Part shown: positions 1 to 48,634 of the stretch, in pieces
Numbering within the stretch: position 1 is the first letter of the stretch
Layout of the letters: each line of letters opens with the position of its first letter
Virus record (IMG/VR): IMGVR_UViG_3300045988_156243
DNA length: 48,634 nucleotides
From: a virus
Taxonomy: Duplodnaviria; Heunggongvirae; Uroviricota; Caudoviricetes
Strand: one strand, 5' to 3'
Notes under the pieces: generated by a model
What the model was told of the DNA's origin: nothing
Databases searched by the model: none
The model's input: the letters and a program-made list of their open reading frames with translations, nothing else
Made by a program: the position numbers and the translations under genes

Positions 1-58
1 TAGGAAATTTTTTCCCACCTGTAAAGCACTTTTTATATAAATCTATAATTATATATTT
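1..58 (-). promoter_or_regulatory. Distal half of conserved promoter-leader cassette, copy C (continues at 48585-48634)
   Basis: Near-identical to 9573-9628 and 41716-41770; contains TTTACA, a 17-bp spacer, TAAGGT, and the AT-rich box tataaatctata at 36-47. Confidence 0.5.
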
Positions 59-116
59 ATAGATTTTCGATATTCCCGATGTCTACACACCATCAAAACA
101 GCTCAAAATGACACTT

Positions 117-494
117 TTACTCTCTTCGCTTTTTCAAATAGTCGACAACATACGCCCTGGCTTTTGCCAGCTTCCGGCGATACTGTCTGAGACTAAGAGA
201 AAGGGCGTGGGCTTTATCAATATGCGGTGCATTTATGTCGAGGCCCCGAATCTCCCACGCCCCGTATTCAATTCGGACAACCAGCGCCGCAGTCTCATCA
301 ACTACCGTGAGGGCCGTCACCGCTCCCTCTATACTGGTTTCCAGTGAGTCATTTGGTGCGCCGCCCCCTCCGGTAAACTGGCAGCGCGTAACCATCATCA
401 TTTCTAACATCGACGCGAAACCGCTACGGGCGTTGCAGCCATTGCGCACCCACAGCGCCCATAGCTCAAACAAGCTATCCAGATCGCGTCTCAC
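117..494 (-). CDS. Putative late antiterminator, Q-like (GTG start)
   Basis: 125 aa; N-terminal MRRDLDSLFELWALW resembles the phage antitermination Q family as I recall it; last gene of the early leftward block, immediately upstream of cassette copy C. Confidence 0.3.
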   Translation of the reverse strand: MRRDLDSLFELWALWVRNGCNARSGFASMLEMMMVTRCQFTGGGGAPNDSLETSIEGAVTALTVVDETAALVVRIEYGAWEIRGLDINAPHIDKAHALSLSLRQYRRKLAKARAYVVDYLKKRRE

Positions 495-497
495 TGT

Positions 498-830
498 TCA
501 GATCTCCCGTATCGTGACGGGATAAAGCGCCTCTACCTGCTTTTTCTTCATGATGTAGACGTCTGTTCGCACACCTTTAGTGTCGACACAATCAATCGTC
601 CCATCGTCATAAAACACCATGAAATCAAGTTTATAAACGACACCACCTGGCAGATGAAAAGGCACCTGCATAAGAAACGTCACAACGCGGCCAGCTTTTC
701 TCAGTAGCTTCAGTTCGCAGTAGTAATCAGCCTCTTTTTTGCTATCAAAAGCGATATCATCGACAACCGTTTTTTTATTGCCGTATTTGCTTTTCCTTGT
801 CGCTGGTTTGCGAAAGCCGGTATATCTCAT
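498..830 (-). CDS. DUF1064-family phage protein
   Basis: 110 aa; KYGNKKTVVDDIAFDSKKEADYY is characteristic of DUF1064 as I recall it; ATG start, tightly packed with neighbours. Confidence 0.5.
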   Translation of the reverse strand: MRYTGFRKPATRKSKYGNKKTVVDDIAFDSKKEADYYCELKLLRKAGRVVTFLMQVPFHLPGGVVYKLDFMVFYDDGTIDCVDTKGVRTDVYIMKKKQVEALYPVTIREI

Positions 831-1231
831 TTGGTATCCCCTGGTACTTCACCAAGACTAAGATCAAACCCAATTTCGTCTTTAACTGACTGCGGCAACA
901 GCTCCCACGTCTGCGCACACAAAAATTCATCTGTGCCATAACGCTCAACAAAGCGAGCACAATTACTCAGGGGAGGGTGACGAACGGCAATATGCGGAGG
1001 CACGCGCCCACCACCAGGCACAACACCGCGATGATGTGGTGCGCACAACCCAAAGCTATGGAAGTGGCAATTCTCATCAACGCTGCCGTAATCAGGATCG
1101 TGATGTAGCTCCGTCCACAGCTCTGGATTCTCAATTTCACGGCCATCAATAATGCAAGCTATGCAACCCACGTGAGTGAGCACCGCTTGTATATAAAGTT
1201 TCTCTTTCTTCGTTGGGGTACGTCCGTTCAT
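827..1231 (-). CDS. Cys/His-rich phage protein, possible zinc-binding nuclease-like
   Basis: 134 aa with CIACII...HH...CHFHSFGLCAPHH; overlapping stop/start with flanking genes. Confidence 0.3.
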   Translation of the reverse strand: MNGRTPTKKEKLYIQAVLTHVGCIACIIDGREIENPELWTELHHDPDYGSVDENCHFHSFGLCAPHHRGVVPGGGRVPPHIAVRHPPLSNCARFVERYGTDEFLCAQTWELLPQSVKDEIGFDLSLGEVPGDTK

Positions 1232-1464
1232 CAGCGCCCCTTACCATTGATAAAGAGGTTGAACTCGTTGATTAACTGGACATACATGCTTCTGGCCGCG
1301 TAGTTCTTTGCCAGCTCTTTACGGGATGAGATCCCGCAAAACTCACGCAGAATCACAGAGGCCTCAGAACTGTTTGAAACGTTCTTCCCTGTTTTACTGG
1401 TCAGAAAGCGCCAGAATTGGGGATTCTGGCAATGCATCGCAGCACCGCGAACATAACTACTCAT
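1231..1464 (-). CDS. Hypothetical early protein
   Basis: 77 aa ORF, ATG start, translationally coupled in the leftward early operon. Confidence 0.35.
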   Translation of the reverse strand: MSSYVRGAAMHCQNPQFWRFLTSKTGKNVSNSSEASVILREFCGISSRKELAKNYAARSMYVQLINEFNLFINGKGR

Positions 1465-1976
1465 TGATGGCCCCCGTCATTTCTGGTGCTTTTCACCGTG
1501 CGGCTTCTTAAAAACCTGCCATCACGAACAACAGACACTTCTCGTTTACCCAACCTCATTTCACGGCGGTAACATTCAGAAAATGCCTCGTCCGGCATCA
1601 TATAAATGCGACGCTTCGCCTCCGTATCCAGAAGGGAACGGCTTGGGGTTACATATAAAAACGACTCATCAATAGGGACAAAACCACGAGCAAGAATTGC
1701 TGGCAGAATGCCAGGAAGAACGCAGAAAACAGCGCCACGATGCAGCAACATCTGGTACTCCATGACCTCCGTTATCCCCGTGACCACTGTTACGGTGTCA
1801 CGTCTGTTACGGCTGGCAACCAGTCGCTGCACACGTCCAATTTTCTGATCTACAGATAGATGTTTGCTATCGTTATCAATATGATCGATAACAAATCCTT
1901 TAATCGTTTGATCAAGGTAGTGCACCACCTGCGATTGAATCTGGTGATTATCACCAAAGAAGGCCAGAATCATCAT
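1461..1976 (-). CDS. Hypothetical early protein
   Basis: 171 aa ORF, ATG start overlapping the upstream gene stop. Confidence 0.4.
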   Translation of the reverse strand: MMILAFFGDNHQIQSQVVHYLDQTIKGFVIDHIDNDSKHLSVDQKIGRVQRLVASRNRRDTVTVVTGITEVMEYQMLLHRGAVFCVLPGILPAILARGFVPIDESFLYVTPSRSLLDTEAKRRIYMMPDEAFSECYRREMRLGKREVSVVRDGRFLRSRTVKSTRNDGGHQ

Positions 1977-2467
1977 TCCTCAAGCCTCCCAAGTGCTGAA
2001 CGCCTGGCGTTGCTAATCTCCTTATGAATCAGCTCGATATCGCTGGAATCTTTATTCTTAAGCTCCAGCACGGTAATCGCATCACGAACCTCTGAAACGG
2101 TTACGTGTGAGTGTTTCCAGCGAGCAATGAATCGCGGACCGCGTAGATTGCAACGCTCCGCAGGCATCCCCAGCTCAGAGAAAACCGCTTTCAGCCTTGA
2201 TAAGCAGTTAACAGGGAGATTCCCTTTGATCTTGTTCTGCCGAACCGATGTGCCATCGCTACGCTGGCGCTGACGTTCGGCAAAATCTGCCGCCCATTGC
2301 TGGACGTTAATCCGGCCTTCCGAATACGCCACCAGCAGCGTCAGGTTATCCGCACGAGGGAATCTCTCGAAGCGATACCAGGCACCAATCAGTGATGACG
2401 TAAAGCCAAACTTTCTGGCAACACCAATTTGGCCTCCATTTTCGTCAACCCACTCCTGAAAGGTCAT
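1973..2467 (-). CDS. Cro/YdaS-like HTH early regulator with C-terminal extension
   Basis: 164 aa; N-terminus MTFQEWVDENGGQIGVARKFG matches Cro/YdaS-type HTH starts; divergent from the CI-like gene across an operator-rich spacer. Confidence 0.5.
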   Translation of the reverse strand: MTFQEWVDENGGQIGVARKFGFTSSLIGAWYRFERFPRADNLTLLVAYSEGRINVQQWAADFAERQRQRSDGTSVRQNKIKGNLPVNCLSRLKAVFSELGMPAERCNLRGPRFIARWKHSHVTVSEVRDAITVLELKNKDSSDIELIHKEISNARRSALGRLEE

Positions 2468-2485
2468 TTAACGAACTCCAGTTAA

Positions 2486-2501
2486 AACCACGATATGTGG
2501 T
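2486..2501. promoter_or_regulatory. Operator-like palindrome aaccacgatatgtggt
   Basis: AACCAC-N5-GTGGT inverted repeat in the cI/cro-like intergenic region. Confidence 0.45.
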
Positions 2502-2506
2502 ATTAA

Positions 2507-2522
2507 AACCACATATCGTGAG
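2507..2522. promoter_or_regulatory. Operator-like site aaccacatatcgtgag (degenerate half-site)
   Basis: Second copy 5 bp from the first; one half-site deviates. Confidence 0.35.
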
Positions 2523-2588
2523 TTTTTCAATGGGCGAAACAAAAAATAACCTTCTATTTGTGGTCCACCTCTCGTCTTACCATGTGAA

Positions 2589-2604
2589 AACCACTAAATG
2601 TGGT
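2589..2604. promoter_or_regulatory. Operator-like palindrome aaccactaaatgtggt
   Basis: Third copy, about 38 bp upstream of the CI-like start, followed by tataaa. Confidence 0.45.
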
Positions 2605-2641
2605 AATGTATAAATAACCCACCATTCACGATTGATGAGAC

Positions 2642-3298
2642 ATGAAAAGCAACGACGAGAACATCAAGAAAGAAATAGGTCTGCGCATTCAGACTCTACG
2701 GAAACAATCCGGCATGACTGCCGGAGATCTCCAGCAAGTCACTGGAATAGGCTTAAGCACCTTGCAGAACTATGAGGCCGGATTAAGACAACCATCTATA
2801 CCTGCCATCAAGAAAATCGCGCACGCCCTGAAAGCATCAGCGCCTTATATCGCGTGCTTAACAGATAACCCGTTCCCACCCCAGAATACTAACGCTCCTG
2901 TTATTCCTGGGCTTGTAGCTATAAAAAATGACATAGCATCGCACGCCGGAGAAAAGCCAGTGCTGGCGATAGAACAGGAGATTCTACGAAGCAAGAACAT
3001 CAACCCATCGTCTCTGTCAGTTCTCCAGAGCAACGATGAGTTAATGTCACCAACAATATCCCCTGGCTCCCAAGTCCTGATTAATACAGACGATACAGAG
3101 ATTCATGAGGGGATCTATGCCCTTGAAGACAGAAATGGCCTGGTTGTTTTGAGGCACTGTAGAGTCATACCGGGTGACAATGCTGTTATGCTGTCAACCG
3201 AAAGGGATGCTGAAATGAACACTAAGCATCTGAATAACGAGGAATTTAAGCGTTATAAAGTTCTTGGCCGCGTAGTTAGTGTTGTCAACTGGTTATGA
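2642..3298 (+). CDS. CI-like repressor (HTH_XRE N-domain plus S24 LexA-like C-domain)
   Basis: 218 aa; N-terminal HTH (GMTAGDLQQVTGIGLSTLQNYE); C-terminal MSPTISPGSQVLINTD and KVLGRVV resemble the S24 Ser/Lys autocleavage motifs. Confidence 0.85.
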   Translation: MKSNDENIKKEIGLRIQTLRKQSGMTAGDLQQVTGIGLSTLQNYEAGLRQPSIPAIKKIAHALKASAPYIACLTDNPFPPQNTNAPVIPGLVAIKNDIASHAGEKPVLAIEQEILRSKNINPSSLSVLQSNDELMSPTISPGSQVLINTDDTEIHEGIYALEDRNGLVVLRHCRVIPGDNAVMLSTERDAEMNTKHLNNEEFKRYKVLGRVVSVVNWL

Positions 3299-5083: not shown

Positions 5084-5105
5084 AAAAAAGGCCCCCGAAG
5101 GGGCC
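5084..5105. terminator. Intrinsic terminator, stronger on the minus strand
   Basis: Hairpin ggcccc-cgaa-ggggcc preceded by aaaaaa (a U-tract on the minus strand). Confidence 0.6.
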
Positions 5106-5111
5106 TAATCG

Positions 5112-5233
5112 CTACTTGCTGCTAATGTTTATCGTCACATTCAGAGCGTTATCAGTAATCTTCCAACCCTCCCCATGTGGCGTAAACAAAGCTCCAGTAA
5201 CAACGATAAAAATACACATACAGTATTTTTTCA
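5112..5233 (-). CDS. Small hydrophobic peptide, candidate type I toxin
   Basis: 40 codons from ATG at 5233 (MKKYCMCIFIVVTGALF...); ORF-track version is TTG-extended; its 5' UTR carries the complement of the 20-mer at 5299-5318. Confidence 0.3.
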
Positions 5234-5298
5234 TTGTGTGGCCCTTACAGGCCGTTTCACGGCATCCCCACCGACGAAAATGACGCGAGAGCAAGCAC

Positions 5299-5318
5299 GC
5301 TGTTTGTGCCTGCGTGGT
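5299..5318. repeat. 20-mer box copy 1 (gctgtttgtgcctgcgtggt)
   Basis: 19/20 identical to 5549-5568. Confidence 0.8.
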
Positions 5319-5548
5319 ACGGCAAGTGGATAATCCTTTCCTGAAAGTCAGTGCCCGGGTGCGAATCGGCGGAAAGGCCCCAAGCCATATTACACGTCAT
5401 ACCCTTCATAATGAAGGAATAAAAAACGCTTTTATTACATAAGATTACACGTAAATAAGTTAAAAACCTTCATTTTGCATGAGCTAATGAGCTAAATTTT
5501 TTTATATGAATAGTGGACTATTCACCTCAGTTGGGTAAGAATGTAGTT

Positions 5549-5568: not shown

Positions 5569-5651
5569 TGTATTAGTACAACGACGTTATGCTGAAAGGA
5601 CCGCGAATCCGATCAGCACGAAAGAACCGTCCTCAAAAGGACGGTTTTTTT
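5549..5651 (+). ncRNA. Candidate ~100-nt sRNA (antitoxin-like), ending in an intrinsic terminator
   Basis: Possible promoter TGGACT-16 bp-TAAGAAT just upstream; terminator ccgtcc-tcaaaa-ggacgg plus T7 at 5627-5651; no credible ORF. Confidence 0.4.
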
Positions 5652-6205
5652 GTTTCTCCCCCTTCCTTCCCAAATGATTCAAATGTTAATGAGAGAGAAT
5701 CATTTGATATGTTCGATTTAGCGCCGTTATCGACCCAATTTCTGTATGCTTCATCACAACAGTACCTTACAGCAGTTGGAGTAACAGGGATGCCGCCCCC
5801 AAATGAGAATCCCATTGAGCTAATGCTAACTCTTTCGAATGGCCTATTTCTCAATGCTTCAAACCCCTTGCTATTAAAGTAACGCAGCATCAGAGGTAAA
5901 AGGTTATCCTCGTCCTGACTGATTGTTCCAGGGAAAAAGTAGTAACCATAACGGTTAAATTCGGGAATAAGATTTTCTACCAATGACATGAAATTCACTG
6001 GAGTAATATTAAGGGCTGTGAAAGCACCAAAAAGGGCGTCAACTGTTAATACAGACTGCCCGTTCTCTATCTTTGTCCATGCGTTTGGTGTTTTTCCAGC
6101 AGCTTGAGCCAGCACTCCTTGATGCACACCTCTTTCTAGCCTAAGTTCTTTTATGATCATTAGGTGAATTGTTGAAAAACATGAGTTTTTTGACTGTTCA
6201 ATCAT
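5633..6205 (-). CDS. HTH_XRE-family transcriptional regulator with C-terminal domain
   Basis: 190 aa; N-terminal HTH (ELRLERGVHQGVLAQAAGKTPNAWTKIENGQ); divergent from the antirepressor operon. Confidence 0.7.
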   Translation of the reverse strand: MIEQSKNSCFSTIHLMIIKELRLERGVHQGVLAQAAGKTPNAWTKIENGQSVLTVDALFGAFTALNITPVNFMSLVENLIPEFNRYGYYFFPGTISQDEDNLLPLMLRYFNSKGFEALRNRPFERVSISSMGFSFGGGIPVTPTAVRYCCDEAYRNWVDNGAKSNISNDSLSLTFESFGKEGGETKKPSF

Positions 6206-6356: not shown

Positions 6357-6409
6357 GTCTCTGTTAAAATCCCGCCGTATTGACATAAATGCGCCATTGG
6401 TGGACACTT

Positions 6410-6488
6410 TCCGAGCCGTAGCAAAATCTACGGCCGGGATTAGCCTCCTGAATAACACGATGGCGCATACCGCGTTAGCGGTTTTTTT
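6410..6488 (+). ncRNA. Candidate structured leader/sRNA upstream of the antirepressor operon
   Basis: Hairpin ccgtag-caaaat-ctacgg and ccgc-gtta-gcgg followed by T7 (6470-6488); no ORF. Confidence 0.25.
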
Positions 6489-6650
6489 ATGCGTAGAGCA
6501 CTGTTACGCCCAAATTATGGTGGGTCGTACAGGGGCGGAGAAATCCGCGCCGGTTCGTCATTGTGTCCGGTAAGGCTAACCCTGTACGGCTCACCACCAT
6601 TTGATTAGCCTCGAATGGCGGTGATAGTTCCATATACTGGAGATATCACA

Positions 6651-6842
6651 ATGACAAACCTACCCCATGACTATTACGTCAACCTCGTAAAGATCCTTCT
6701 CAAGAAAGCCTCATACGCCGATAAATTCCGCCTGGCTGAAATCATCGAGCGCGAAGCTATGCGCATCGCCAGCAACGATAACGCTGTTTCTGACGCAAAA
6801 ATCTCCCTCGTAACCAAAGTAGTTATGGGAGGTGCAAAATGA
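6651..6842 (+). CDS. Small ORF translationally coupled to the antirepressor (icd-like position)
   Basis: 63 aa from ATG at 6651 with ggag RBS; stop overlaps the antirepressor start (ATGA). Confidence 0.35.
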   Translation: MTNLPHDYYVNLVKILLKKASYADKFRLAEIIEREAMRIASNDNAVSDAKISLVTKVVMGGAK

Positions 6843-7990
6843 AAACGCTTCCGACCGTTAACACCCTACAGCCTATCCTGCATAATCAGATTCCAGTAAT
6901 CACAACTGAGCTACTCGCCCGCCTTTATGGAACAGAAGCAATCCGTATACAGCAAAATCACCATGAAAATAAAACTCGGTTCATTGAGGGGAAGCACTTC
7001 TTTAAAGCTGTTGGTGATGAACTCAAAAATTTGCGACTAGTTTTAAACGAGTCACAAAATGAGGTGCCAATTTCCCCCAAAACTCGCTCTCTCATCCTCT
7101 GGACAGAACGCGGGGCTGCACGTCACGCCAAAATGCTTGAAACTAACCAAGCGTGGGATGTGTTCGAACGGCTGGAAGACTGCTATTTCAACCAGAACGC
7201 GCAAACGGCCGCGACCGTAACCGTCTCGCCAAACAATGCTCGTGAGGTTGTCGATACGCTCAACGCCAAACCGATGTTTTACATTAAGGTGTGCAACAAC
7301 GAGCCACTCACAACCTCAGCCGATGTTGCCCAGGCATTCAGCACCACAAACAATTCCATCGTTATGGCCATCGATGCGTTACGCATTCCTCGCACAGCTG
7401 CGGCACGTCATTTCTTTAAAGAGCAACGACCGCTGGAAGGAAGCGACCGCGAAATAACAATCTATCGCATGACAAAAGACGGATTTACCTTGCTCATGGA
7501 AAGTATCGACGGTCCAGGCGTGAAAGATATCAAGCTGGCCTACATTGAAGCCTTTAACGCTATCAGCAGCGTGTTAAAAACACAGTACGAGCGTGATCTG
7601 GCTAAACGACTGTACCAGGAAAAAACGATTATCCGCGCGGCAACAGAGCATAATCGGCTATTAACGGAACCGAACTACAGGAAGGAACTAATCAAGGAGT
7701 TTGACAAGGCAACAGGGAAAACCAAAGCGGCGCTAAATCTGCCAGCAATGACTCAGGAAAATGTGATATCAGCCTTACTTCTTGATCTGCTCAGAAACGC
7801 CAGAGCACTTATCAGCTTTGACGAAAACCTGAATCCTCAGCTCAAGCTACTACCACCGACAGGCAAAGTAGTCGACCAAGCTGATCACAACAGCATACTC
7901 AGCGTTCTGGATGCAAACCTGCCAGCCAGGACACTACAGGATCTGATAAAAACATGTGCTGATAAGCTGGCACAGAAAAGCAGACCATAA
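6839..7990 (+). CDS. Antirepressor (KilA-N/ORF6N-type N-domain plus Rha/Ant-type domain)
   Basis: 383 aa; N-terminal ITTELLARLYGTEAIRIQQNHHENKTRFIEGKHFF and central PMFYIKVCNNEPLTTSADVAQAF resemble phage antirepressor domains. Confidence 0.8.
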   Translation: MKTLPTVNTLQPILHNQIPVITTELLARLYGTEAIRIQQNHHENKTRFIEGKHFFKAVGDELKNLRLVLNESQNEVPISPKTRSLILWTERGAARHAKMLETNQAWDVFERLEDCYFNQNAQTAATVTVSPNNAREVVDTLNAKPMFYIKVCNNEPLTTSADVAQAFSTTNNSIVMAIDALRIPRTAAARHFFKEQRPLEGSDREITIYRMTKDGFTLLMESIDGPGVKDIKLAYIEAFNAISSVLKTQYERDLAKRLYQEKTIIRAATEHNRLLTEPNYRKELIKEFDKATGKTKAALNLPAMTQENVISALLLDLLRNARALISFDENLNPQLKLLPPTGKVVDQADHNSILSVLDANLPARTLQDLIKTCADKLAQKSRP

Positions 7991-9135: not shown

Positions 9136-9516
9136 TTACTTAACGAGGAATAAAAATGGTTTATTGTTCGGCGGTGTAATCGGGGCTGGCTCGCTTTTGC
9201 TCATGCGATCAGTGTACCAGGCCAACTCCTTGTCAAAGTAAGCCTGATTAAAATAGGCCATGAATGTAGTTTCAAATCCATAACGACCGCTAATACGCAG
9301 CATCTGATTGCCGTTCTCTGTTTCCAGATATACCTGGGCACGTTCCTGATTCTCCTTCAGCCAGGTTAAAGCCTCATCGCATGAGGACACACGATACTCA
9401 TCATCGTAGCAGTCATCGATGCGGCTTGAGGAAGAACGGCAAATCACGCCAACAGAACCAGCCAGGATAGTTTGAATTTTAAGGAAAGCGTTTTTGCGGA
9501 TTTTAATCATGCTCAT
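9136..9516 (-). CDS. Hypothetical protein driven by cassette copy A
   Basis: 126 aa; ATG at 9516 inside the conserved leader. Confidence 0.5.
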   Translation of the reverse strand: MSMIKIRKNAFLKIQTILAGSVGVICRSSSSRIDDCYDDEYRVSSCDEALTWLKENQERAQVYLETENGNQMLRISGRYGFETTFMAYFNQAYFDKELAWYTDRMSKSEPAPITPPNNKPFLFLVK

Positions 9517-9628
9517 CGGGTTATCTCCGGTTTAACCAGGGCGGGTATCGCTCGGTTTCGGGTATAACCTTAGGAAATTTTTTCCCACCTGTAAAGCACT
9601 TTTTATATAAATCTATAATTATATAAGC
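9517..9628 (-). promoter_or_regulatory. Conserved promoter-leader cassette, copy A
   Basis: About 105 bp near-identical to 41655-41770 and to 48585-48634 plus 1-58; TTTACA-17-TAAGGT, upstream AT-rich box, and RBS ggag before the ATG. Confidence 0.55.
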
Positions 9629-9629
9629 A

Positions 9630-9656
9630 CAAAAAAGCCCCTTTGCAACAGGGGCT
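9630..9656 (-). terminator. Intrinsic terminator of the toxin-antitoxin operon
   Basis: Hairpin agcccct-ttgcaac-aggggct with a U-run on the minus strand. Confidence 0.6.
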
Positions 9657-9671: not shown

Positions 9672-9971
9672 TCAGATGTTAAACGCTATTCGTTTTCCTG
9701 TGGGAAGCTCAACATCCAGGCTTAATTTGCCTCCCATAGCTTCAACGTAACGCTTTAATGTCGCCAGCTTTAAATCATTTCCGCGCTGCTCCAGCTTTGT
9801 TACTGCTGGCTGGCTTATACCCATCGCCTCAGCAACCTGTTTTTGTGATAACTGGAGTTCTTCACGCATCATCTGCAAGCCGACCTCAAGAATCATCTCA
9901 TCTGCCATTTCTTTAATTCGCGCCTGGCTTTCCGGTGAACGGCTGGCAATCGCCTCATCTAATGTTCTCAT
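9672..9971 (-). CDS. HigA-like antitoxin (HTH_XRE)
   Basis: 99 aa; HTH LQLSQKQVAEAMGISQPAVTKLEQ; sits immediately downstream of the toxin gene. Confidence 0.75.
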   Translation of the reverse strand: MRTLDEAIASRSPESQARIKEMADEMILEVGLQMMREELQLSQKQVAEAMGISQPAVTKLEQRGNDLKLATLKRYVEAMGGKLSLDVELPTGKRIAFNI

Positions 9972-10318
9972 TACTTGCTCTCCAGTGTGTTCAGATGTGC
10001 TGCAAACTCATCCTCAGCTATACGCACCAGTTTTTCATAAAACCGCTTATCGTTACTTTTGTCTCCTGCACAAAGAACGATGGCCCGGCGAATCGGATCG
10101 AACGCATAAAAGGCTCTTATCGGACGGCCAGAAAACTGAACGCGAAGCTCTTTCATATTTTTGTACCGAGAACCTTTTACGGTATCGGCATATGGCCTAG
10201 GTAACTCAGGTCCGTAAACCTGTAGCTTTTTCAAATCAGCCAAAACCTTTTCCTGAAGAGCGTCTTCTTGCTCATTTAGCCAGTCGTCAAATCGCTGGCT
10301 AAAAAGTACCGTCCACAT
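9971..10318 (-). CDS. RelE/HigB-type toxin (phage Gp49-like killer protein family)
   Basis: 115 aa from ATG at 10318 (ORF-track start is TTG); toxin-first order overlapping the antitoxin start. Confidence 0.7.
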   Translation of the reverse strand: MWTVLFSQRFDDWLNEQEDALQEKVLADLKKLQVYGPELPRPYADTVKGSRYKNMKELRVQFSGRPIRAFYAFDPIRRAIVLCAGDKSNDKRFYEKLVRIAEDEFAAHLNTLESK

Positions 10319-37684: not shown

Positions 37685-37700
37685 CAGCGCCTCCTACACA

Positions 37701-39074: not shown

Positions 39075-39697
39075 CAGCACACCTCCCCAGCCAGCAATGC
39101 GGATACAAATCCGATATAGCTGCCATTATCATCAACATAACGAGACACCGCGCAGTCAAAACGATCCGCTTCCTCATCCGTTGCCGGGATTTTATGACCT
39201 CCAAATGACAGGTACTGAACTTTTACGCCTGATTTGGCCTCATCCTTCTCAAATGGGATATCCATACCCTCTGTGTCATCGTAGACCGCCGCACTCAATA
39301 AGTTATCCAGTTCGCGCTGAGTAAAACCAATTGAGTCCAGAGCAAAATCATCGGCCGCAAGATCTGCAAGCTCCGCGCTTAACAACTCTTCATCCCAACC
39401 AGCATTCAGCGGAATACGGTTGTCGGCCAGACGATATGCCTTCTTCTGATTCTCCGTTAGCCCAGCCAGAACAATGCAGGGAACATCATCCATCCCCAAC
39501 TGAGTGGCCGCAGCAATTCGACCATGACCAGCAATTACAACGTTGTTCTCGTCTATCAGGATCGGATTAGTCCATCCGTACTCCTGTATGCTGGCAACAA
39601 TCTGATCTACCTGCTCCACGGAGTGTGTGCGAGCGTTCTTTTCATAACCAATCAACACAGAAAGTGGTAAAGAAACCACATTAAGATGTTTTGTCAT
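39074..39697 (-). CDS. ParB N-terminal-domain (ParB-like nuclease) protein, paralogue 2
   Basis: 207 aa; WTNPILIDENNVVIAGHGRIAAA; clearly paralogous to 35817-36407. Confidence 0.8.
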   Translation of the reverse strand: MTKHLNVVSLPLSVLIGYEKNARTHSVEQVDQIVASIQEYGWTNPILIDENNVVIAGHGRIAAATQLGMDDVPCIVLAGLTENQKKAYRLADNRIPLNAGWDEELLSAELADLAADDFALDSIGFTQRELDNLLSAAVYDDTEGMDIPFEKDEAKSGVKVQYLSFGGHKIPATDEEADRFDCAVSRYVDDNGSYIGFVSALLAGEVC

Positions 39698-41775: not shown

Positions 41776-42363
41776 CTATGCCACTTGCCAGAGAGCATCA
41801 TGCAACTGGATACCTCCATTGCACTGGTTGCCCCAGCCATGCCAACCATCAGGTAAATCACCGCGAGCAAACAGCTCAATACGAGGAACATCACCTAACA
41901 GCCTTACCAGCTTGTCACGAACCACATCAGGCTTCCGAGAATGCTCCAGACGAGGCGATGTAAACGACTGAATGATCCCCGCATCAAGGCGGGTCGGCAA
42001 TTTGCCTTTTACCGCAAACAAGCAATCTTCACTGTTTGCACGAGTCATATGCCCCATCCCCATCACCAGCTTATCTGGTTGTCGGCTACCACATTTGTTC
42101 CATGTGAAGCCCTTCATGGTCATAAGCCTGAATCCCCATGCTTTCACCACCAGCAACGCTTCTTCTGGCTGAGTCGGAACCCACCACATGGCCAACAAAC
42201 ACGATTCAGGATTAGCAAGCTGCCAGACAGGAATACGAGCAATATCCTCAGCTTTCATCGTTGGATACTTAAAACCAGCTCCACGATTCCCATCCTTACA
42301 CTTATCTTTGTATTCCCAGGGGGGATCTGCATAAATCAGATTAAACAATGCAATTGCCTCCAT
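41776..42363 (-). CDS. MT-A70-family N6-adenine DNA methyltransferase
   Basis: 195 aa; catalytic DPPW motif in IYADPPWEY near the N-terminus. Confidence 0.8.
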   Translation of the reverse strand: MEAIALFNLIYADPPWEYKDKCKDGNRGAGFKYPTMKAEDIARIPVWQLANPESCLLAMWWVPTQPEEALLVVKAWGFRLMTMKGFTWNKCGSRQPDKLVMGMGHMTRANSEDCLFAVKGKLPTRLDAGIIQSFTSPRLEHSRKPDVVRDKLVRLLGDVPRIELFARGDLPDGWHGWGNQCNGGIQLHDALWQVA

Positions 42364-42671: not shown

Positions 42672-42747
42672 TGGTGGCCCCTACCGGATTTGAACCGATG
42701 ACCGTGCGATTATGAGTCGCCTGCTCTAACCACTAAGCTAAGGGGCC
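42672..42747 (-). tRNA. tRNA with CAU anticodon (Ile2-like or Met)
   Basis: 76 nt; 7-bp acceptor stem GGCCCCT/AGGGGCC, anticodon loop CUCAUAA, T-loop GGTTCAAATCC, encoded CCA; close to E. coli tRNA-Ile2 as I recall it. Confidence 0.85.
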
Positions 42748-42916: not shown

Positions 42917-43126
42917 TTACTTGGGGCAGTTGATTTCCCATGCCCTGTTATGAGCCAGAATATCTTTCTTTGTCTGGCGGTCCATAACATCGATGTCGTG
43001 ATCAGTCAGGTAGATGGGCTTTACCCAATCACAGGCGGTATCAACCACCACCGGGACGCTTCCACGACTCCCGCAGCTCGCGATCAACATCGTCATCAGC
43101 CATATGGTTAACACTCTGCTGTACAT
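42917..43126 (-). CDS. Putative o-spanin (Rz1-like lipoprotein)
   Basis: 69 aa; lipobox-like LIASC; start embedded in the 3' end of the upstream i-spanin-like gene. Confidence 0.5.
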   Translation of the reverse strand: MYSRVLTIWLMTMLIASCGSRGSVPVVVDTACDWVKPIYLTDHDIDVMDRQTKKDILAHNRAWEINCPK

Positions 43127-43319
43127 TCCCCACCTCTTTTGTCACTTCTATACGCCGCTCCGCAGTGGCTTTTACGGCGGCTGCATTCTCATTAATGCGC
43201 TGCTTTTCAGCTTCATCTTCGGCCTTTTCTCGCCCCTTCATACGACCAAAACCAAATGCGCCGAATGCAACCAATATAATGGTGCCGATAAATGACAAAA
43301 CGGCTTTCAAACCAGTCAT
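43041..43319 (-). CDS. Putative i-spanin (Rz-like)
   Basis: 92 aa; N-terminal transmembrane helix then charged coiled-coil segment; directly downstream of the endolysin. Confidence 0.55.
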   Translation of the reverse strand: MTGLKAVLSFIGTIILVAFGAFGFGRMKGREKAEDEAEKQRINENAAAVKATAERRIEVTKEVGNVQQSVNHMADDDVDRELRESWKRPGGG

Positions 43320-43858
43320 ACCACCACTCGCTCTTTCATCCAGCCGTAGACAAACGACTCATTTGCTTCGCGTTTCTCCGCCAGGTCCAGATAACGGTCG
43401 CCCTGCGTACAGTTAAGGGCCGTCAGCATTACCCGTTCGCCGTCTTTTCCCCGATTCCCAAGATAAGCACGTAATGCCGCAATGGTGCGCGGGCCGATTC
43501 GCCCATCCACATCCATATCTGGATACAACTTCCCGCCACGGTTGAAAACATTCAGCCAACGTTGAAGCATCTTCGTAGCCACAGTCGGCCCCATGTTGAC
43601 GCCCGTATCGCACATCTCAGCCGCAATATCAGGGGAAAATTGCGCCACCTGGTCAAAACGAGGCCCATACCAATAATCACCTTCAAGAATCATCAGAGCC
43701 TGTTCTCGCGTCAGATCTCGCATATCGCCACGGTATCCGTGAGCACGGGCAGTATTCTGAGTGATGCCCCACATTGTTGGGCCTCCCTTGTCGTCAGGGT
43801 GATCAACATAACCGCCCTCTTTTCCAAGAATGCTGTTAAAAATCTCATCTTTGGTCAT
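43316..43858 (-). CDS. Endolysin (GH108-like muramidase with peptidoglycan-binding domain)
   Basis: 180 aa; N-terminus EGGYVDHPDDKGGPTMWGIT typical of GH108; flanked by holin and spanin genes. Confidence 0.8.
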   Translation of the reverse strand: MTKDEIFNSILGKEGGYVDHPDDKGGPTMWGITQNTARAHGYRGDMRDLTREQALMILEGDYWYGPRFDQVAQFSPDIAAEMCDTGVNMGPTVATKMLQRWLNVFNRGGKLYPDMDVDGRIGPRTIAALRAYLGNRGKDGERVMLTALNCTQGDRYLDLAEKREANESFVYGWMKERVVV

Positions 43859-44141
43859 GATTAAATCCTAATGCGTCAACTATCCGCGCCAGATTGCCCC
43901 TGAAATACAGAACAACGATGCAGATAATCAGATTTCCAATAACCACCAGCCAGTGGGATTCTTGATAAAGACCGAACACATAACGGAAGGGAACATTGGC
44001 GTATACAATGACGTAGATATAAGCCAGAAAGGAAACAAATGGACGATGCCTGGAGTCTTTCCGTCGATAAAGCATCAGCGCCATTACTATTACTGTGCAA
44101 AGCACCGCATTAATCAGTGCTGACGGGTCACTGCTTACCAT
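43845..44141 (-). CDS. Holin (three transmembrane segments)
   Basis: About 98 aa from ATG at 44141 (ORF-track start is TTG); hydrophobic helices; overlaps the endolysin start. Confidence 0.55.
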   Translation of the reverse strand: MVSSDPSALINAVLCTVIVMALMLYRRKDSRHRPFVSFLAYIYVIVYANVPFRYVFGLYQESHWLVVIGNLIICIVVLYFRGNLARIVDALGFNHDQR

Positions 44142-44523
44142 TTGAACCCCCTCCACGTAAGCGGGAAAGCATTCCAAAGATGCTACCGAGATCCTGGCTG
44201 TTTACGAACGTGAGGATTTTAATGGTCAATGCAGCCACAATAACCGCACCAAGCGCATCCAGAGGACGATCGTTGTAGCTGGTCCATTTGGCAAGAAATG
44301 AGCCAACTAACGGCGCTCCAATCACTCCAACAATGAACGATGTAAAGAAATAGCCAATCAGCTTGAGACGGCTAATATTCACCGCTGTAGCAACATAGAA
44401 AACAGCGCCAGCAAATGCCCCGAATACAACGCCGTAATCAATACCAGTTGCAATACCAAAAACGCTGGCACCCATCAGGCCACCAGCAGCAACGGCCGTA
44501 CCGGAAATTGGTTCTGCTGACAT
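44128..44523 (-). CDS. Holin-like multi-pass membrane protein
   Basis: 131 aa, Gly/Ala-rich transmembrane segments; first gene of the lysis cluster. Confidence 0.45.
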   Translation of the reverse strand: MSAEPISGTAVAAGGLMGASVFGIATGIDYGVVFGAFAGAVFYVATAVNISRLKLIGYFFTSFIVGVIGAPLVGSFLAKWTSYNDRPLDALGAVIVAALTIKILTFVNSQDLGSIFGMLSRLRGGGSNGKQ

Positions 44524-44713: not shown

Positions 44714-44905
44714 TCAACTTTTTACCAACTGAACATCCCGACCAGGACTTCCATAATATTCGCCGATATTCCACTGCTTAAGTTGAGTAATCTTCTCCAA
44801 CTTAACTCCCATAGAGTCCAGTTTCTGCCATGTTTTCGGTTGTATGTGCTTCATTACCCGCTCTGAATATCTGAATACTGCTCGTAGCCTCGCTAAATTG
44901 CTCAC
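44714..44905 (-). CDS. Hypothetical small protein
   Basis: 63 aa ORF (GTG start). Confidence 0.3.
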   Translation of the reverse strand: MSNLARLRAVFRYSERVMKHIQPKTWQKLDSMGVKLEKITQLKQWNIGEYYGSPGRDVQLVKS

Positions 44906-45591
44906 TTGTCGCCTCCTTTACGAATCTGTTCCGCCCATTCCCCAAGAGATTTCTCCGCATATTCACCGGACAGGCCATCAATCGGGTGCGGTTCATTAGC
45001 CAACTCTTCTTTCGCTGACAGAATCATGCGTGTAACGTCGAAAACTTCACGTAAAGACTTATTGATAAATCCGTGGTTGAAAGCAGCAGCAAGACGGCTT
45101 GCGGTATAGTTAATCCCCTCGTTGCGAGCCGCCGCACGAATTTCAGCCAGAAAAGCATCGGTGGCTGGAGTTTCGCTGTGGTGCAGGGCATCGTTGATAA
45201 TCATTGCAGCAACTCCGGCCTGCCCTGCATCCGTGACCGACACATGCTCAAGAGTTACAGCCATTGCATGTTTCAGCCCAGCATTCTCCGCCGCCAGCGC
45301 CGCACGACAGGCCTCCAGTTCAGCAATACGCTTGTTTTGGGCTTCCCGCTCATCCAGTAGTGCCAAAGCAACCTTTGGGTTGAACGCGGCAACATAACGA
45401 GCGTTGTTCTCTGCATTTTTCTGTCCATCAAAGCCGGTCCATTTGATAACGTCTTCACATCGTTCATCACCGGGCGTGTGCACCGCATAAGTACCAGTAT
45501 CCGTCGAAATAAATGCGACCCATTCGTCTGGTGTTGCCTGTTTTGCTATCTCACGCAGCGCCTGATAATTAATTGCTGTGCTGTTAGTCAT
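44902..45591 (-). CDS. Ead/Ea22-like phage protein
   Basis: About 229 aa from ATG at 45591 (the ORF-track 335-aa version overlaps the upstream gene); coiled-coil segment ELEACRAALAAENAGLKHAMA. Confidence 0.45.
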   Translation of the reverse strand: MTNSTAINYQALREIAKQATPDEWVAFISTDTGTYAVHTPGDERCEDVIKWTGFDGQKNAENNARYVAAFNPKVALALLDEREAQNKRIAELEACRAALAAENAGLKHAMAVTLEHVSVTDAGQAGVAAMIINDALHHSETPATDAFLAEIRAAARNEGINYTASRLAAAFNHGFINKSLREVFDVTRMILSAKEELANEPHPIDGLSGEYAEKSLGEWAEQIRKGGDK

Positions 45592-45925
45592 TCCAAGACT
45601 CCATCTCTGTTTCAATTTCTTTATCGATCTCATCGTTTGTGGCTTCTTCATCCAGATGGTCACGAGCCTCTTTACGATACTTTTCTCTATGCGCTTCATA
45701 CCAGTTAGAAAACTCCGGCGACCAGCCTGTGTCCTTGCCGTCGTAGTCAAACTTGGCATTTTTCTCAGCCATGCTTTCAACCATGTTTTCAGCCGTAATA
45801 AGCCCCAATTCACGCATCCCACGCAAAAAACTTTTACGCATGTGAGGGCTAACTTTCGAATCACAAACAGGCTTAAATTTGACTTCCCAACGGCGAATAC
45901 AACGTGCATTAAGTGATTTGTTCAT
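45584..45925 (-). CDS. Hypothetical acidic protein
   Basis: 113 aa; stop 2 nt from the downstream ATG. Confidence 0.45.
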   Translation of the reverse strand: MNKSLNARCIRRWEVKFKPVCDSKVSPHMRKSFLRGMRELGLITAENMVESMAEKNAKFDYDGKDTGWSPEFSNWYEAHREKYRKEARDHLDEEATNDEIDKEIETEMESWND

Positions 45926-45927
45926 AG

Positions 45928-46611
45928 TTATGCTTCCTGAATACGCTTAAACTCAATTACCCATACCCACGGGTTAGATAGCCAGTTCTCTTGCCCGTAA
46001 ATACCGCGCCAGATATCACCAAAGCCAACGCGATAAACAGCTTCCGGTGGCGTAATTTTGTACGTCGCCGGAAATGCGCCTTCCGCTTTCGCATCTGCCT
46101 CGCTAATGTCATGCAGCCGTTCCACACGCACGTCGGTAATTTCCAGCAAAATACGCGAAGCCCAGCGTGGCATGTGAATTGATGGACACCACCCGCCATC
46201 AAACTTTTCATTCACAGTGTGAGGCTTCCAGTCGGCATCATCGGGTATCGACCATAAGCCATAATCCCCCGGTTTTTGCTCACAACTGGCCCGATAAATC
46301 CTTGCTGCGTTCTTCTCATCGCCACGACAAAGGTTGTCGTTCCAGTCCACACTGCAACCATCCTCATTGCCTAATATCGCCCACGCTTCACGGACCCATA
46401 TGCGATCACCAACGTTACCGAACGGGCATAAACCATGTTCAGGTGCATCCATAACGTGGGTATAGACACCATTGCGTTTCTTTGTCGGTTTACGGATAAC
46501 CAGGCAGTTATCGGCCCTGACATTTTTTACAGGTCGGCGAGTCTGCGTCTTCCTTCCTTCGAGGATGGCCCTAACCATATCGTCATTAAAAACAACACCA
46601 CGTTCTTTCAT
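45928..46611 (-). CDS. Hypothetical phage protein (possibly ASCH-like)
   Basis: 227 aa; N-terminal MVRAILEGRKTQTRR recalls conserved phage proteins of that type. Confidence 0.4.
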   Translation of the reverse strand: MKERGVVFNDDMVRAILEGRKTQTRRPVKNVRADNCLVIRKPTKKRNGVYTHVMDAPEHGLCPFGNVGDRIWVREAWAILGNEDGCSVDWNDNLCRGDEKNAARIYRASCEQKPGDYGLWSIPDDADWKPHTVNEKFDGGWCPSIHMPRWASRILLEITDVRVERLHDISEADAKAEGAFPATYKITPPEAVYRVGFGDIWRGIYGQENWLSNPWVWVIEFKRIQEA

Positions 46612-46766
46612 TTAGAAGCCACCTTGTTCAATTTCCGGCGACAAGACACGCAATCATCAGGACTCTCAAAAGTGTCTGGCTCACGGTAATCACCAAAATA
46701 CATCCAACGGCCGCAAATGCTGGTTACTTCACCTTCATTAAAATAATGATGTTTATTCGCCTTCAT
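46608..46766 (-). CDS. Small Cys-rich protein (possible zinc ribbon)
   Basis: 52 aa from ATG at 46766 (MKANKHHYF...CGRW...CVSC); ATGA overlap with the downstream gene. Confidence 0.3.
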   Translation of the reverse strand: MKANKHHYFNEGEVTSICGRWMYFGDYREPDTFESPDDCVSCRRKLNKVASK

Positions 46767-46795
46767 TGGCCTGACCCATCCGGCATTTTTCTTGC

Positions 46796-47161
46796 TCACT
46801 TCAACTCCTCCCGACGACGTTCCTGAAGCTCTAGCATTGCGGCTCGGAAATCCTGCCACCATTCCTCATCTGCAACGGGGGTGTTCCGCTCCAGCACCTT
46901 GTCCGCATCGGCGATCAGGTTTGCCAGACTCTTGTCTGAAATCTTCGTTACCGGAGTCGTTGGTTGCTCAACCTGCCCGATAGGTTTTATCGTGCTCAAA
47001 AGGAGGCGACGGCGGGAAAGTGGTGCCCCACAACGACGGCCATCTTCCTTGCGATATGTTTCTTTCGGACCAACACACCAGGTTGTCGGCGTTTCGCGCA
47101 ACTTCACTCTTTTCTCACCATCATTGGTAATGATTATTCCGGTATGGGTTTTGATGCTCAT
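46796..47161 (-). CDS. Hypothetical protein
   Basis: 121 aa, ATG start overlapping the upstream stop. Confidence 0.4.
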   Translation of the reverse strand: MSIKTHTGIIITNDGEKRVKLRETPTTWCVGPKETYRKEDGRRCGAPLSRRRLLLSTIKPIGQVEQPTTPVTKISDKSLANLIADADKVLERNTPVADEEWWQDFRAAMLELQERRREELK

Positions 47162-47460
47162 GCCACAGCCCCTCTCAACGGCTTAACTTTGGCTAATAAG
47201 GTGTTAAACAACATGGAGTTAGGATTCATGCCAAATGGCAATTCCGGTTTAGCGGAGTAGTACAGGCAACCATTTATTTTCCTGGTTGTTATCTGTCCTT
47301 CGGCAACCATGCTTCTCAGTCTGCAACGCATAGAGTTCTGCGACACACCAATGTGCTCCGCGATTACGTCCACTTTTGAACATGGGTGATCGGTCAGGAA
47401 ATTAATCACATCTTGGGGGTTAATAATTTTGCGTTTCATTGTCGAGGCGTCCTTATACAT
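47158..47460 (-). CDS. Putative winged-helix DNA-binding protein
   Basis: 100 aa; VDVIAEHIGVSQNSMRCRLRSMVAEGQITTRK; AT-rich box immediately upstream (47458-47487). Confidence 0.45.
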   Translation of the reverse strand: MYKDASTMKRKIINPQDVINFLTDHPCSKVDVIAEHIGVSQNSMRCRLRSMVAEGQITTRKINGCLYYSAKPELPFGMNPNSMLFNTLLAKVKPLRGAVA

Positions 47461-47516
47461 TTATATAAATATATAATTCTATATACGGCGGGAGACATCC
47501 CGCCGTAGGCTTACTG

Positions 47517-48584
47517 TCAGGCTTTCAATAGCGATTCTTTCAGATATCGGGCATCAGCCAGGGCATTTGGAGTAATCTTGCGAACCCATGCATTACGGGT
47601 TGGACTCCACTTAAAGGCGCGTGATTTAAGCAGCGAACGAATGTTTGCCTCTGGTTTGCCAGGGAAATAAAACAGGATGCGGTTATCCTCTGGATCTATC
47701 TCCATAGAAAAGTCGTCGTATTCTTCGCGCTGTGCTCCTGTTACAGACTTGACCGATTCAAGCTCCTTAATACGGCTCTGTAGTCGTTTGATCTCGGCGT
47801 TATTGTTGCTCAGTGCGTATGAAGGGAATCCGATGCGCCCACAAAAATCTCCGGCCAGTAACTCTTTGGCTTCGCTTTCTGTAAACCTGAGATCGATTAA
47901 TGCAGAAAGCTGCTGTAATTGGTCTTTTTTGTATTTGCGAATGGCCTTATTTGCGGCCTTCATTTTGACGTGTGACTTCATGCAGCCTTGCAGCTTACGA
48001 AGCAACTTAAATAGCGCATCAGGATCATCAGACGAAATTCCATTACGACCAACACCTGCGGCTTTGCTCTCGTAGTGTGATGCTTTACTTTCGCATTCAA
48101 CAAACGCTTTTCTGAATAACGCATCAGCTTTAGACAAACGGCGGCGATGGCCTTTCGCGCTATAATGGTCAACTAAAATCGGCTGGCCTAACGGGATCAC
48201 ATCCAACAGGTCATGCGCTCGCTTATGCGCTACCGCACCTTCTTTTCTGGCTTTTTCTGCACGAGCAATATATCGGGCAAGACGCGCGTTCTGGCGTTCC
48301 TGATAGGTGTTTACGTAATCATCTCCGCGCTGCTGCTGTTCAAGCCATGCTTTGCGCAGATCTTCTGTTACGTCCACCAGCTCCGCAGGGATACAACCAG
48401 TTTGGGCTTCATAAGAGTAACCATCCTCATAGATGCGCCCATCGTCTTCAACAAAGAAAAAGGTTTCGTGCTCATCGCTTTTGACCATACGACCATTAAC
48501 ATGGCGTAATAGGTAGCCAGTATCAGTGCTTAACAGGCTGTTAGGGTTGTTGATCCAGTCAGAAATAATTACTTGTTTATTCAT
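47517..48584 (-). CDS. Hypothetical protein driven by cassette copy C
   Basis: 355 aa; ATG at 48584 inside the conserved leader; basic and coiled-coil-rich central region. Confidence 0.55.
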   Translation of the reverse strand: MNKQVIISDWINNPNSLLSTDTGYLLRHVNGRMVKSDEHETFFFVEDDGRIYEDGYSYEAQTGCIPAELVDVTEDLRKAWLEQQQRGDDYVNTYQERQNARLARYIARAEKARKEGAVAHKRAHDLLDVIPLGQPILVDHYSAKGHRRRLSKADALFRKAFVECESKASHYESKAAGVGRNGISSDDPDALFKLLRKLQGCMKSHVKMKAANKAIRKYKKDQLQQLSALIDLRFTESEAKELLAGDFCGRIGFPSYALSNNNAEIKRLQSRIKELESVKSVTGAQREEYDDFSMEIDPEDNRILFYFPGKPEANIRSLLKSRAFKWSPTRNAWVRKITPNALADARYLKESLLKA

Positions 48585-48634
48585 CAGATTTCTCCGGTTT
48601 AACCAGGGCGGGTATCGCTCGGTTTCGGGTATAA
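48585..48634 (-). promoter_or_regulatory. Proximal half of conserved promoter-leader cassette, copy C (continues at 1-58)
   Basis: Identical to the leader halves of copies A and B; the window ends inside the cassette. Confidence 0.5.

Follow-up and report, generated by a model that had tools for sequence, protein, structure and literature searches.

A 48.6-kb myovirus genome that very probably lysogenises Escherichia coli and its relatives as a circular plasmid

Introduction

The groups of enterobacterial phage-plasmids named in the literature consulted are P1, D6, the SSU5 supergroup (pHCM2, pKpn, pSLy3, pMT1 and pCAV) and N15 (PMC7969092; bioRxiv 2025.09.12.675607), and the present analysis sets beside them a further element, the viral record IMGVR_UViG_3300045988_156243 of IMG/VR (Caudoviricetes), whose 48,634 nucleotides are referred to below as the window. 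On the virion side the closest described system is a group of Vibrio phages, here called the X29 group, which has been proposed as a new family, 'Weiviridae', and whose member vB_VpaM_XM1 is a myovirus by transmission electron microscopy (TEM) (PMC11432961). A plasmid nearly identical to the window, pESBL3215 (MW390530), has been listed simply as "phage plasmid" (PMC7822866). A first-pass annotation of the window, made from its letters without database searches, had described a phage-plasmid not corresponding to the P1, N15 or SSU5 types, a mosaic of lambda-like head and immunity, P2-like tail and IncFII-type replicon.

It is shown below that the gene families named in that description are present, but that a recent chimera of the sources they suggest is not. 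The window is very probably the whole genome of a temperate myovirus lysogenising as a low-copy circular plasmid, a member of a tight lineage of which many genomes, from E. coli and related bacteria, have already been sequenced. The element is real but already known, near-identical genomes being public, and as a discovery it matters little, since it is in GenBank many times and belongs to a known kind, the phage-plasmids.

A closed circle with the genes of a phage and of a plasmid

Gene content was read from Pfam, NCBIfam and PHROGs profile scans of the open reading frames (ORFs) of the window. When the last 600 and first 600 bases of the window are joined they align as one piece (99.3%) inside the genome of Yersinia phage vB_YpM_44, and the joined bases match plasmid NZ_CP062206 across its origin as well. 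The 48,634 bp of the window form a closed circle; since end and start are contiguous in vB_YpM_44, nothing can lie outside the window. This disposes of an integrase or attachment site just beyond the window, which had been named at the outset as a way in which the phage-plasmid interpretation could fail. Within the window no ORF of at least 200 aa matches a tyrosine recombinase in the profile scans, in agreement with the absence of an integrase reported earlier. A 383-aa ORF (6839–7990) suspected of encoding an integrase because of its size was rejected, being an ORF6N+Rha protein by Pfam. Exactly at the 48634/1 join, three bases are absent that related records have, as do the other two copies of a repeated promoter unit (Table 1); the gap may be an artefact of assembly or circularisation.

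The circle holds a complete set of virion, packaging and lysis genes, the virion set being collinear with that of the TEM-verified X29/XM1 group, together with a replication initiator of the IncFII_repA family (E 1e-43; RepA_IncFII_LM, 231 bits against a cutoff of 70) and the partition ATPase ParA. It has no integrase and forms a separate circular replicon. These features, along with the plasmid location of its relatives, bear out the designation as a phage-plasmid, and the gene list and gene order given in the first-pass annotation were likewise confirmed, the virion genes all lying on the - strand from 36407 down to 15382.

A lineage common in Escherichia coli

By megablast the window is 98–99% identical to the complete ~49 kb records of Yersinia phages vB_YpM_39, vB_YpM_41 and vB_YpM_44 (OR545053-55), which entered GenBank as phage isolates on Y. 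pestis EV76-CN under myovirus names. Hundreds of plasmid records match as well, and dozens of these are 47–49 kb in size, non-mobilizable, and 97–99% identical over most of their length. The lineage is common, and is present in the universal quality-control strain E. coli ATCC 25922, whose plasmid CP009073 (48,488 bp) has 62 of the 65 window proteins in common, mostly at 97–100% identity. The vB_YpM phages, CP009073 and pESBL3215 are the same element, with 96–99% nucleotide identity over most of their length and the same gene order, RepA and CI; near-identical copies differ in the variable parts of the fibre, in the antirepressor region at ~5–9 kb, in some early genes and, in some cases, by insertion sequences (IS). 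At sequence level, then, the close database match that would speak against novelty was found, and with 97–99% identity to three phage records and many plasmids the claim of a new element has to be given up.

Of 5,426 complete E. coli genomes, 72 carry the virion block and 71 the cI/par backbone (~1.3% each), and 96 of 97 virion-block places and 77 of 78 backbone places are on plasmids. Frequencies so nearly equal agree with there being one lineage, which is extrachromosomal in almost every case. The one virion-block place and the one backbone place that are chromosomal could represent an integrated or cointegrated copy. The lineage is also found in E. albertii, E. fergusonii, Klebsiella and Salmonella, and its proteins are 97–100% identical throughout, without decay; some relatives are shortened or carry IS elements, e.g., the 32-kb CP024829.

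Because the lineage falls outside the groups screened in recent Enterobacteriaceae surveys (P1, D6, SSU5, N15), and because PLSDB assigns no replicon type to the near-identical plasmids, it is easily logged as a "cryptic plasmid". No paper naming or characterising it was found in the literature searched, and accession searches in papers and in partial supplements of phage-plasmid catalogues gave no mention of the element. The name pSLy3 was considered for the family and rejected, since pSLy3 belongs to the ~100-kb SSU5 supergroup (PMC7969092), and the 'pseudolysogenic' Yersinia phage vB_YpM_HQ103, considered as a relative, proved to be a 32-kb Peduoviridae phage.

The virion genes as one X29-type block

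Searches with the large terminase subunit (TerL) and with the sheath protein return the same relatives. The closest are Vibrio phages X29, phi 2, Rostov 7 and vB_VpaM_XM1 (TerL 63–65%, portal 66% and sheath 50–53% identical), and more distant ones are phages of Acinetobacter (HFM1), Exiguobacterium, Faecalibacterium, Paenibacillus and Fusobacterium. X29 is collinear with the element from the ParB-like nuclease through terminase, head, sheath, tube, frameshifted chaperone and baseplate to gpI, and 22–24 of the 65 window proteins are common to X29 and XM1; a DUF1064 protein is also common to the element and the X29 group. Identity to the head of N15, which is of lambda type, amounts to 27% for TerL and 26% for the portal, and identity to P2 tail proteins to 27–32%. 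Collinearity of head and tail with one and the same group, taken with the low identity to N15 and P2, argues for an old single module and not for a recent mosaic. Judged by its sequence, the virion module, from the ParB-like nuclease through the tail-fibre chaperone, is thus a single X29-type block, and the idea of a lambda head joined to a P2 tail is not borne out. The actual mosaicism is between the virion block and the maintenance/immunity backbone. Tyrosine integrases and O-like/DnaC-like replication genes are found in the phages of the X29 group but not in the element; conversely, those phages have none of its RepA, ParA, toxin-antitoxin pair, invertible fibre segment and C4 module.

The head and packaging block encodes four connector proteins, capsid protein E, a decoration-protein candidate, a ClpP protease, a portal, a protein at the position of gpW, TerL, the small terminase subunit (TerS) and a ParB-like nuclease-domain protein. 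The components that define a lambda-type head are all found, namely a gpA-type TerL (PF05876, E 1e-76; PF20454, E 1e-84), a lambda-family portal (PF05136, E 7e-101) and a gpE capsid protein (PF03864, E 1.5e-55), and the protease matches PF00574 (E 4e-32), its S49 match being weak. The lambda-order head proposed earlier therefore holds for the order, the gpA-type TerL, the portal, ClpP and gpE, but Nu1, gpW and gpD are represented by positional analogues without a family match: TerS matches PHROG 57 only (E 7e-42), a small DUF6148 protein occupies the gpW position, and the decoration-protein candidate scores 18.7 bits with HDPD, under the cutoff of 29.1.

Among the tail proteins, the families Phage_tube, Phage_GPD, Phage_base_V, P2_GpU, GPW_gp25, Baseplate_J and Tail_P2_I are matched, and the sheath belongs to PHROG 23 (E 1e-95) and has no Pfam match. 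The gpE chaperone gene contains a T TTT TTG slippery heptamer at 25281–25275, from which the -1 frame continues to a TAA at 25119–25117, and a fibre gene and two fibre chaperone (Tfa) genes complete the tail set after gpI. Protein families and E/E' frameshift are indeed those of a P2-like tail, as had been noted, but the two-operon order of P2 (V-W-J-I-H-G apart from FI-FII-E-T-U-D) gives way here to one sheath-to-fibre block, and the head is of lambda type and not that of P2. The tape measure gene contains in-frame direct repeats at 22770–23051 (three copies of 42 nt, 120-nt spacing).

The non-coding region upstream of the packaging genes is likely the cos region. The records of vB_YpM_39, 41 and 44 begin at about window positions 36810–36821, and packaging of the genome would start at a cos-type site preceding the terminase genes. 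Close to these genes, three proteins have a ParB_N domain (35817–36407, 37701–39080 and 39074–39697), the second being fused to a methyltransferase domain; the protein at 35817–36407 is kept at the same position in the Vibrio X29 group.

An IncFII-superfamily replicon

RepA satisfies the RepA_IncFII_LM model given above but fails the equivalog of classical IncFII, TIGR03474 (78 bits against a cutoff of 446.9), so that the IncFII-type, RepA1-like replicon of the first-pass annotation stands at superfamily level and not as classical RepA1. With classical IncFII RepA, the RepA1 type known from R1 and R100, it is ~31–41% identical over 29–45% of its length. Likeness to classical IncFII lies in the Pfam IncFII_repA family, in a candidate antisense RNA in the leader and in a DnaA box and AT-rich region downstream of repA, whereas the element has neither an Rfam CopA match nor a copB. 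Matches to RepA in PLSDB comprise ~59 plasmids at no less than 95% identity and three at 80–90%, all others listed being below 60%; after the 80% group, the next best in the sampled rows is 37%.

Downstream of repA, a perfect DnaA box (TTATCCACA) at 11638–11630 followed by an AT-rich stretch points to a region that would act as the origin. The opposite strand of the repA leader (12640–12760) folds into a long hairpin with a terminator (-69.4 kcal/mol, z -9.4), and this fold is kept in the replicons of the Salmonella and Serratia relatives compared below, with three compensatory pairs (n = 3, weak). This antisense RNA of the leader would repress RepA. As the window has no second recognisable replication initiator, the same replicon probably serves both the plasmid state and lytic growth. 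On induction, copy number would rise as a CI-type site immediately upstream of repA is relieved of repression.

Immunity and lysis–lysogeny control

The region between the CI-like repressor gene and a divergent early operon carries the palindrome ACCAC-N5-GTGGT at 2487–2501 and 2590–2604, along with an imperfect third copy. Throughout the window this motif has eight hits at no more than one mismatch, against 0.67 expected; one further perfect copy closely follows cI (3341), another lies a short distance upstream of the repA leader (12796–12810), and a copy with one mismatch stands at 6341, in front of the C4 operon. The Salmonella relative, whose CI is 65% identical, has other central bases but retains the half-sites in the cI region, behind cI and upstream of repA, and none of these sites is found in Serratia pJSRIV006_2. 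Covariation of the operator with heteroimmune relatives was not obtained, as most relatives share CI, and it is conservation, not covariation, that is shown. A palindrome common to the cI region and repA hints that immunity and replication are coupled.

A second control module resembles immI of P1, in which a C4 RNA precedes a small ORF and an antirepressor gene. It consists of an isrK and a1b1-like RNA (6402–6488), the C4 antisense RNA (6513–6601), a 75-aa ORF (6615–6842) and the ORF6N+Rha protein described above. C4 scores 70.8 bits in Rfam against a gathering threshold of 45 and isrK 68 against 50, and a1b1, at 36.7, is under its threshold of 46.7; the ORF6N+Rha protein is not a homologue of P1 Ant, as far as tested. 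The lambda-like immunity described earlier was thus incomplete, and immunity in this element is lambda-like and P1-like together.

Partition and dispersed TATA arrays

ParA has its P-loop from residue 10 and no N-terminal DNA-binding domain, as is characteristic of the small ParA proteins of type Ib. The ParA half of the proposed ParA/ParG system is borne out, but its 'ParG', an 82-aa protein with no family or PDB match, is unverified; a model of it with a disordered N-terminus and two helices makes a ParG-like, ribbon-helix-helix protein plausible. TATA boxes with 8-bp spacing (TATA-N4) give 13 hits against none expected, gathered into eight clusters. Two of these bracket the parA promoter (3789–3816 and 3864–3892), one lies just upstream of the 82-aa gene (4570–4597), and the remaining five are intergenic elsewhere, three of them just upstream of repeated promoters. 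These repeated promoter-leader units are 93–98% identical, share the form TTTACA-N17-TAtGGT (TAAGGT in the 9505..9631 copy) and each head a different leftward operon.

The TATA-N4 clusters are absent from Serratia pJSRIV006_2 (CP074139), which has an array of another motif, TTTAAATAAATATTTA; its 21 hits, against 0.05 expected, fall at the parA promoter of that plasmid and at four scattered intergenic places. That the array differs with the backbone fits a DNA-binding protein encoded by the element itself; the ParG-like protein is the simplest candidate, and in the window it would bind arrays of TATA boxes spaced by 8 bp. By analogy with omega of pSM19035 or KorB of RK2, the ParG-like protein may act as a global regulator via arrays at early promoters.

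The invertible tail-fibre segment

A serine DNA invertase whose best solved relative is Mu Gin (3UJ3), inverted gix-like sites and two fibre C-termini, each with its own chaperone, substantiate the Gin-type invertible fibre noted earlier, and inversion of this cassette would switch host range. The segment is 88–94% identical in nucleotides to those of Mu, P1, D108 and P88, and the proteins of the cassette are 56–95% identical to P1 and P2. Recent exchange of the fibre cassette with relatives of Mu, P1 and P2 is thus real. The constant region of the fibre has in-frame direct repeats at 17020–17412 (three copies of 93 nt, 66–78% identical).

Other loci

The HigBA-like addiction module of the first-pass annotation is upheld by a Gp49 family toxin gene upstream of an HTH_3 antitoxin gene. 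Next to the partition genes, a ryfA-family RNA locus may encode a type I toxin and so provide a second addiction module. The leftward early operon divergent from cI, which includes a Ref-family RecA-dependent nuclease (827–1231) and the DUF1064 protein (498–830), is conserved in the Salmonella and Serratia relatives. PADLOC, run on ten accessory proteins, returned no defence system, only methyltransferase-like matches to the ParB_N proteins. Table 1 lists these and the remaining loci.

Table 1. Features of the 48,634-bp window and of the Serratia array, with strand (a dot where none is assigned) and basis of assignment
Feature	Position	Strand	Basis
Leftward early operon, six proteins, divergent from cI	117..2467	-	Pfam, PHROGs
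Divergent control region with ACCAC-N5-GTGGT copies	2468..2641	.	Motif scan
CI-like repressor, HTH_3 and weak S24 peptidase domain	2642..3298	+	Pfam; PHROG 4, CI-like family
ParA partition ATPase, 217 aa	3916..4569	+	Profile scans
Candidate centromere-binding protein, ParG-like, 82 aa	4613..4861	+	Context, model
ryfA-family RNA locus with small hydrophobic ORF (MKKYCMCIFIVVTGALF...)	5084..5382	-	Rfam, 131 bits vs gathering 80
HTH regulator, 190 aa, divergent from C4 RNA operon	5633..6205	-	Pfam
P1 immI-like module	6402..7990	+	Rfam; Pfam
HigBA-like pair: toxin 9971–10324, then HTH antitoxin 9672–9971	9672..10324	-	Pfam Gp49, E 6e-23; HTH_3
Candidate origin downstream of repA	11150..11779	-	DnaA box and AT-rich stretch, read from sequence
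RepA initiator, IncFII_repA family; likely ATG 12628, 282 aa	11780..12628	-	PF02387, E 1e-43
repA control region: candidate antisense RNA 12641–12753 and ACCAC-N5-GTGGT palindrome	12640..12810	+	Fold, palindrome search
Gin/Cin-family serine DNA invertase, 184 aa	12941..13495	-	Pfam; Mu Gin 3UJ3, 211 bits; 56% to P1 Cin
Invertible segment, 3.05 kb	13563..16640	.	Inverted gix-like sites 13563–13588 and 16612–16640
Alternative fibre C-terminus	13577–14824	+	In invertible segment
Tfa of alternative fibre	14826–15353	+	In invertible segment
Expressed Tfa	15382–15915	-	In invertible segment
Tail fibre gene, constant N-terminal part and currently expressed variable part	15918..17987	-	Pfam
Contractile tail and baseplate block: I, J, W, U, V, D, X, tape measure, E/E', tube, sheath	18018..27558	-	Profile scans; collinear with X29
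Head, connector and packaging block	27558..36407	-	Profile scans; collinear with X29
Non-coding region upstream of packaging genes	36408..36964	.	Likely cos region
239-aa protein, ParB_N+methyltransferase fusion (37701–39080), ParB_N protein (39074–39697)	36965..39697	-	Profile scans
MT-A70 family DNA methyltransferase	41776..42363	-	Pfam
tRNA-Met, anticodon CAT, between methyltransferase gene and lysis cassette	42672..42747	-	RNA scans
Lysis cassette: two holin-family proteins, GH108 endolysin, Rz-like spanin	43041..44523	-	Annotation of near-identical plasmids; PHROG 1026
Second early operon: DUF3560 protein 47517–48584, several small proteins, Ead/Ea22-like 44902–45909	44902..48584	-	Pfam
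Promoter-leader-RBS (ribosome-binding site) unit, ~125 bp, three copies	9505–9631, 41652–41778, 48572–48634 joined to 1–61	-	Sequence repeat
TATA clusters	36–55, 3789–3816, 3870–3889, 4570–4597, 9606–9625, 41751–41772, 42887–42914, 47454–47483	.	Motif scan
TTTAAATAAATATTTA array in CP074139 (positions in that record)	16914, 19251, 22123–22234, 26207, 27684	.	Motif scan

Alternative readings

A cryptic plasmid bearing a defective prophage or tailocin-like remnant, unable to make infectious virions, would account for a plasmid with phage genes, and such an interpretation can point to the lack of induction or plaque data for this sequence, to its many genes of unassigned function, and to relatives that are shortened or carry IS elements, such as CP024829. 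However, the morphogenesis, packaging and lysis genes are all intact ORFs in X29 order, the programmed frameshift site is intact, the proteins of the lineage show none of the decay that a remnant would imply, and three genomes 98–99% identical to the window were deposited as phages isolated on Y. pestis, all of which makes a defective element improbable. The view that the window is a recent chimera of a lambda-like head, a P2-like tail and an IncFII replicon, and as such a new type, draws on the Pfam families of lambda (gpA, portal, gpE) and of P2 (FII, D, V, U, J, I), on the placement of RepA in PF02387, and on the recent exchange of the fibre cassette with Mu, P1 and P2 relatives. It is nonetheless very unlikely, since head and tail proteins share one set of relatives and are collinear as a single block, identities to N15 head and P2 tail proteins are low, the tail order is unlike that of P2, RepA resembles classical IncFII only over part of its length and fails TIGR03474, and the lineage is already abundant in databases.

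It is scarcely conceivable that the record is an ordinary integrative prophage, captured as an excised or misassembled circle from which integrase and attachment site were lost. One of the 97 virion-block places and one of the 78 backbone places are indeed chromosomal and the X29 group carries integrases, but the circle closes within 3 nt of independent records, dozens of independent complete assemblies agree on a 47–49 kb circular plasmid of one gene set that lacks an integrase, and a plasmid initiator, ParA and a toxin-antitoxin pair stand in place of an integration module.

Several points nevertheless weigh against the reading of the window as a temperate myovirus with a plasmid prophage, or against parts of it. 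In the literature searched, no experiment on the element was found, nor a paper on vB_YpM_39, 41 or 44, and the ends placed in the likely cos region are inferred only. The coupling of immunity to replication has to contend with the absence of the site upstream of repA in the Serratia relative, and the near-match before the C4 operon has no counterpart found in front of the antirepressor operon of the Salmonella relative. The RNA of the repA leader has no clear antisense promoter and lacks the CopA match in Rfam, and the 82-aa protein has no match in Pfam, none by phmmer against the PDB and no significant one by Foldseek (monomer model). Lytic growth from a single replicon rests on the lack of other recognisable replication genes, while many early proteins are without an assigned function.

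Comparison with known phage-plasmids and backbone relatives

That the element is not of P1, N15 or SSU5 type, as the first-pass annotation had stated, is borne out by the small number of its 65 proteins that these phages share. The protein comparison (local tblastn of the 65 window proteins) covered nt 1–47,400 of the 94,800 of P1 and gave five matches, all in the invertase and fibre cassette; by megablast, P1 is matched only in the fibre segment and pmgT. Element and P1 have in common a plasmid-prophage lifestyle, a C4 RNA before a small ORF and an antirepressor-type gene, a Ref homologue and a Cin/Gin fibre segment; the fibre chaperones are 93–95% identical and the pmgT segment 90% in nucleotides. 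Yet the element is without the Cre/lox system and the type Ia ParA/ParB of P1, has an unrelated virion and half the genome size, and, unlike P1, a RepA of the IncFII_repA family and a CI-like HTH/S24 repressor. N15 matches three of the 65 proteins, whereas the element has no unassigned ORF of protelomerase size and its relatives are circular records. SSU5 (nt 1–100,000 of 103,299 covered) gives three weak matches, and its group, at ~100 kb and with a siphovirus virion, contrasts with the 48.6 kb and contractile tail of the element.

It is therefore tempting to see here an unnamed fifth widespread family of enterobacterial phage-plasmids beside P1/D6, SSU5 and N15, with a single CI-controlled replicon, a ParG-like global regulator and a portable backbone, but this remains a tentative and rather doubtful proposal when taken in all its parts. 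If true, the regulatory wiring would be unusual, with one IncFII-superfamily replicon serving both modes via a CI-type operator on the repA promoter. ATCC 25922 is a strain in which the candidate links of immunity with partition and with the control of replication can be tested.

Relatives of the backbone extend the comparison beyond the near-identical copies. Salmonella Concord pAR-0407-1 is a divergent syntenic relative with 44 of the 65 proteins in common. Serratia sp. pJSRIV006_2 has the backbone in the same order, with RepA 36%, ParA 54%, the ParG-like protein 40% and CI 33% identical, an early operon at 33–65% and an endolysin at 68% identity, these being the only proteins in common, and it likewise has hairpins in the repA leader and a dispersed par-operator array. 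Its virion, unlike that of the element, is that of a lambda-like siphovirus (gpU, V, G/T, H, M, L, K, I, J) with a protease-capsid fusion, and it is apparently a sister phage-plasmid with a swapped virion module. On this comparison the backbone is itself a module, and it may be a portable 'plasmid-lysogeny cassette' joined to myovirus and siphovirus virions. The element thus offers a clean case of module exchange, its virion block being combined with integrases in Vibrio phages and its backbone with a siphovirus virion in Serratia.

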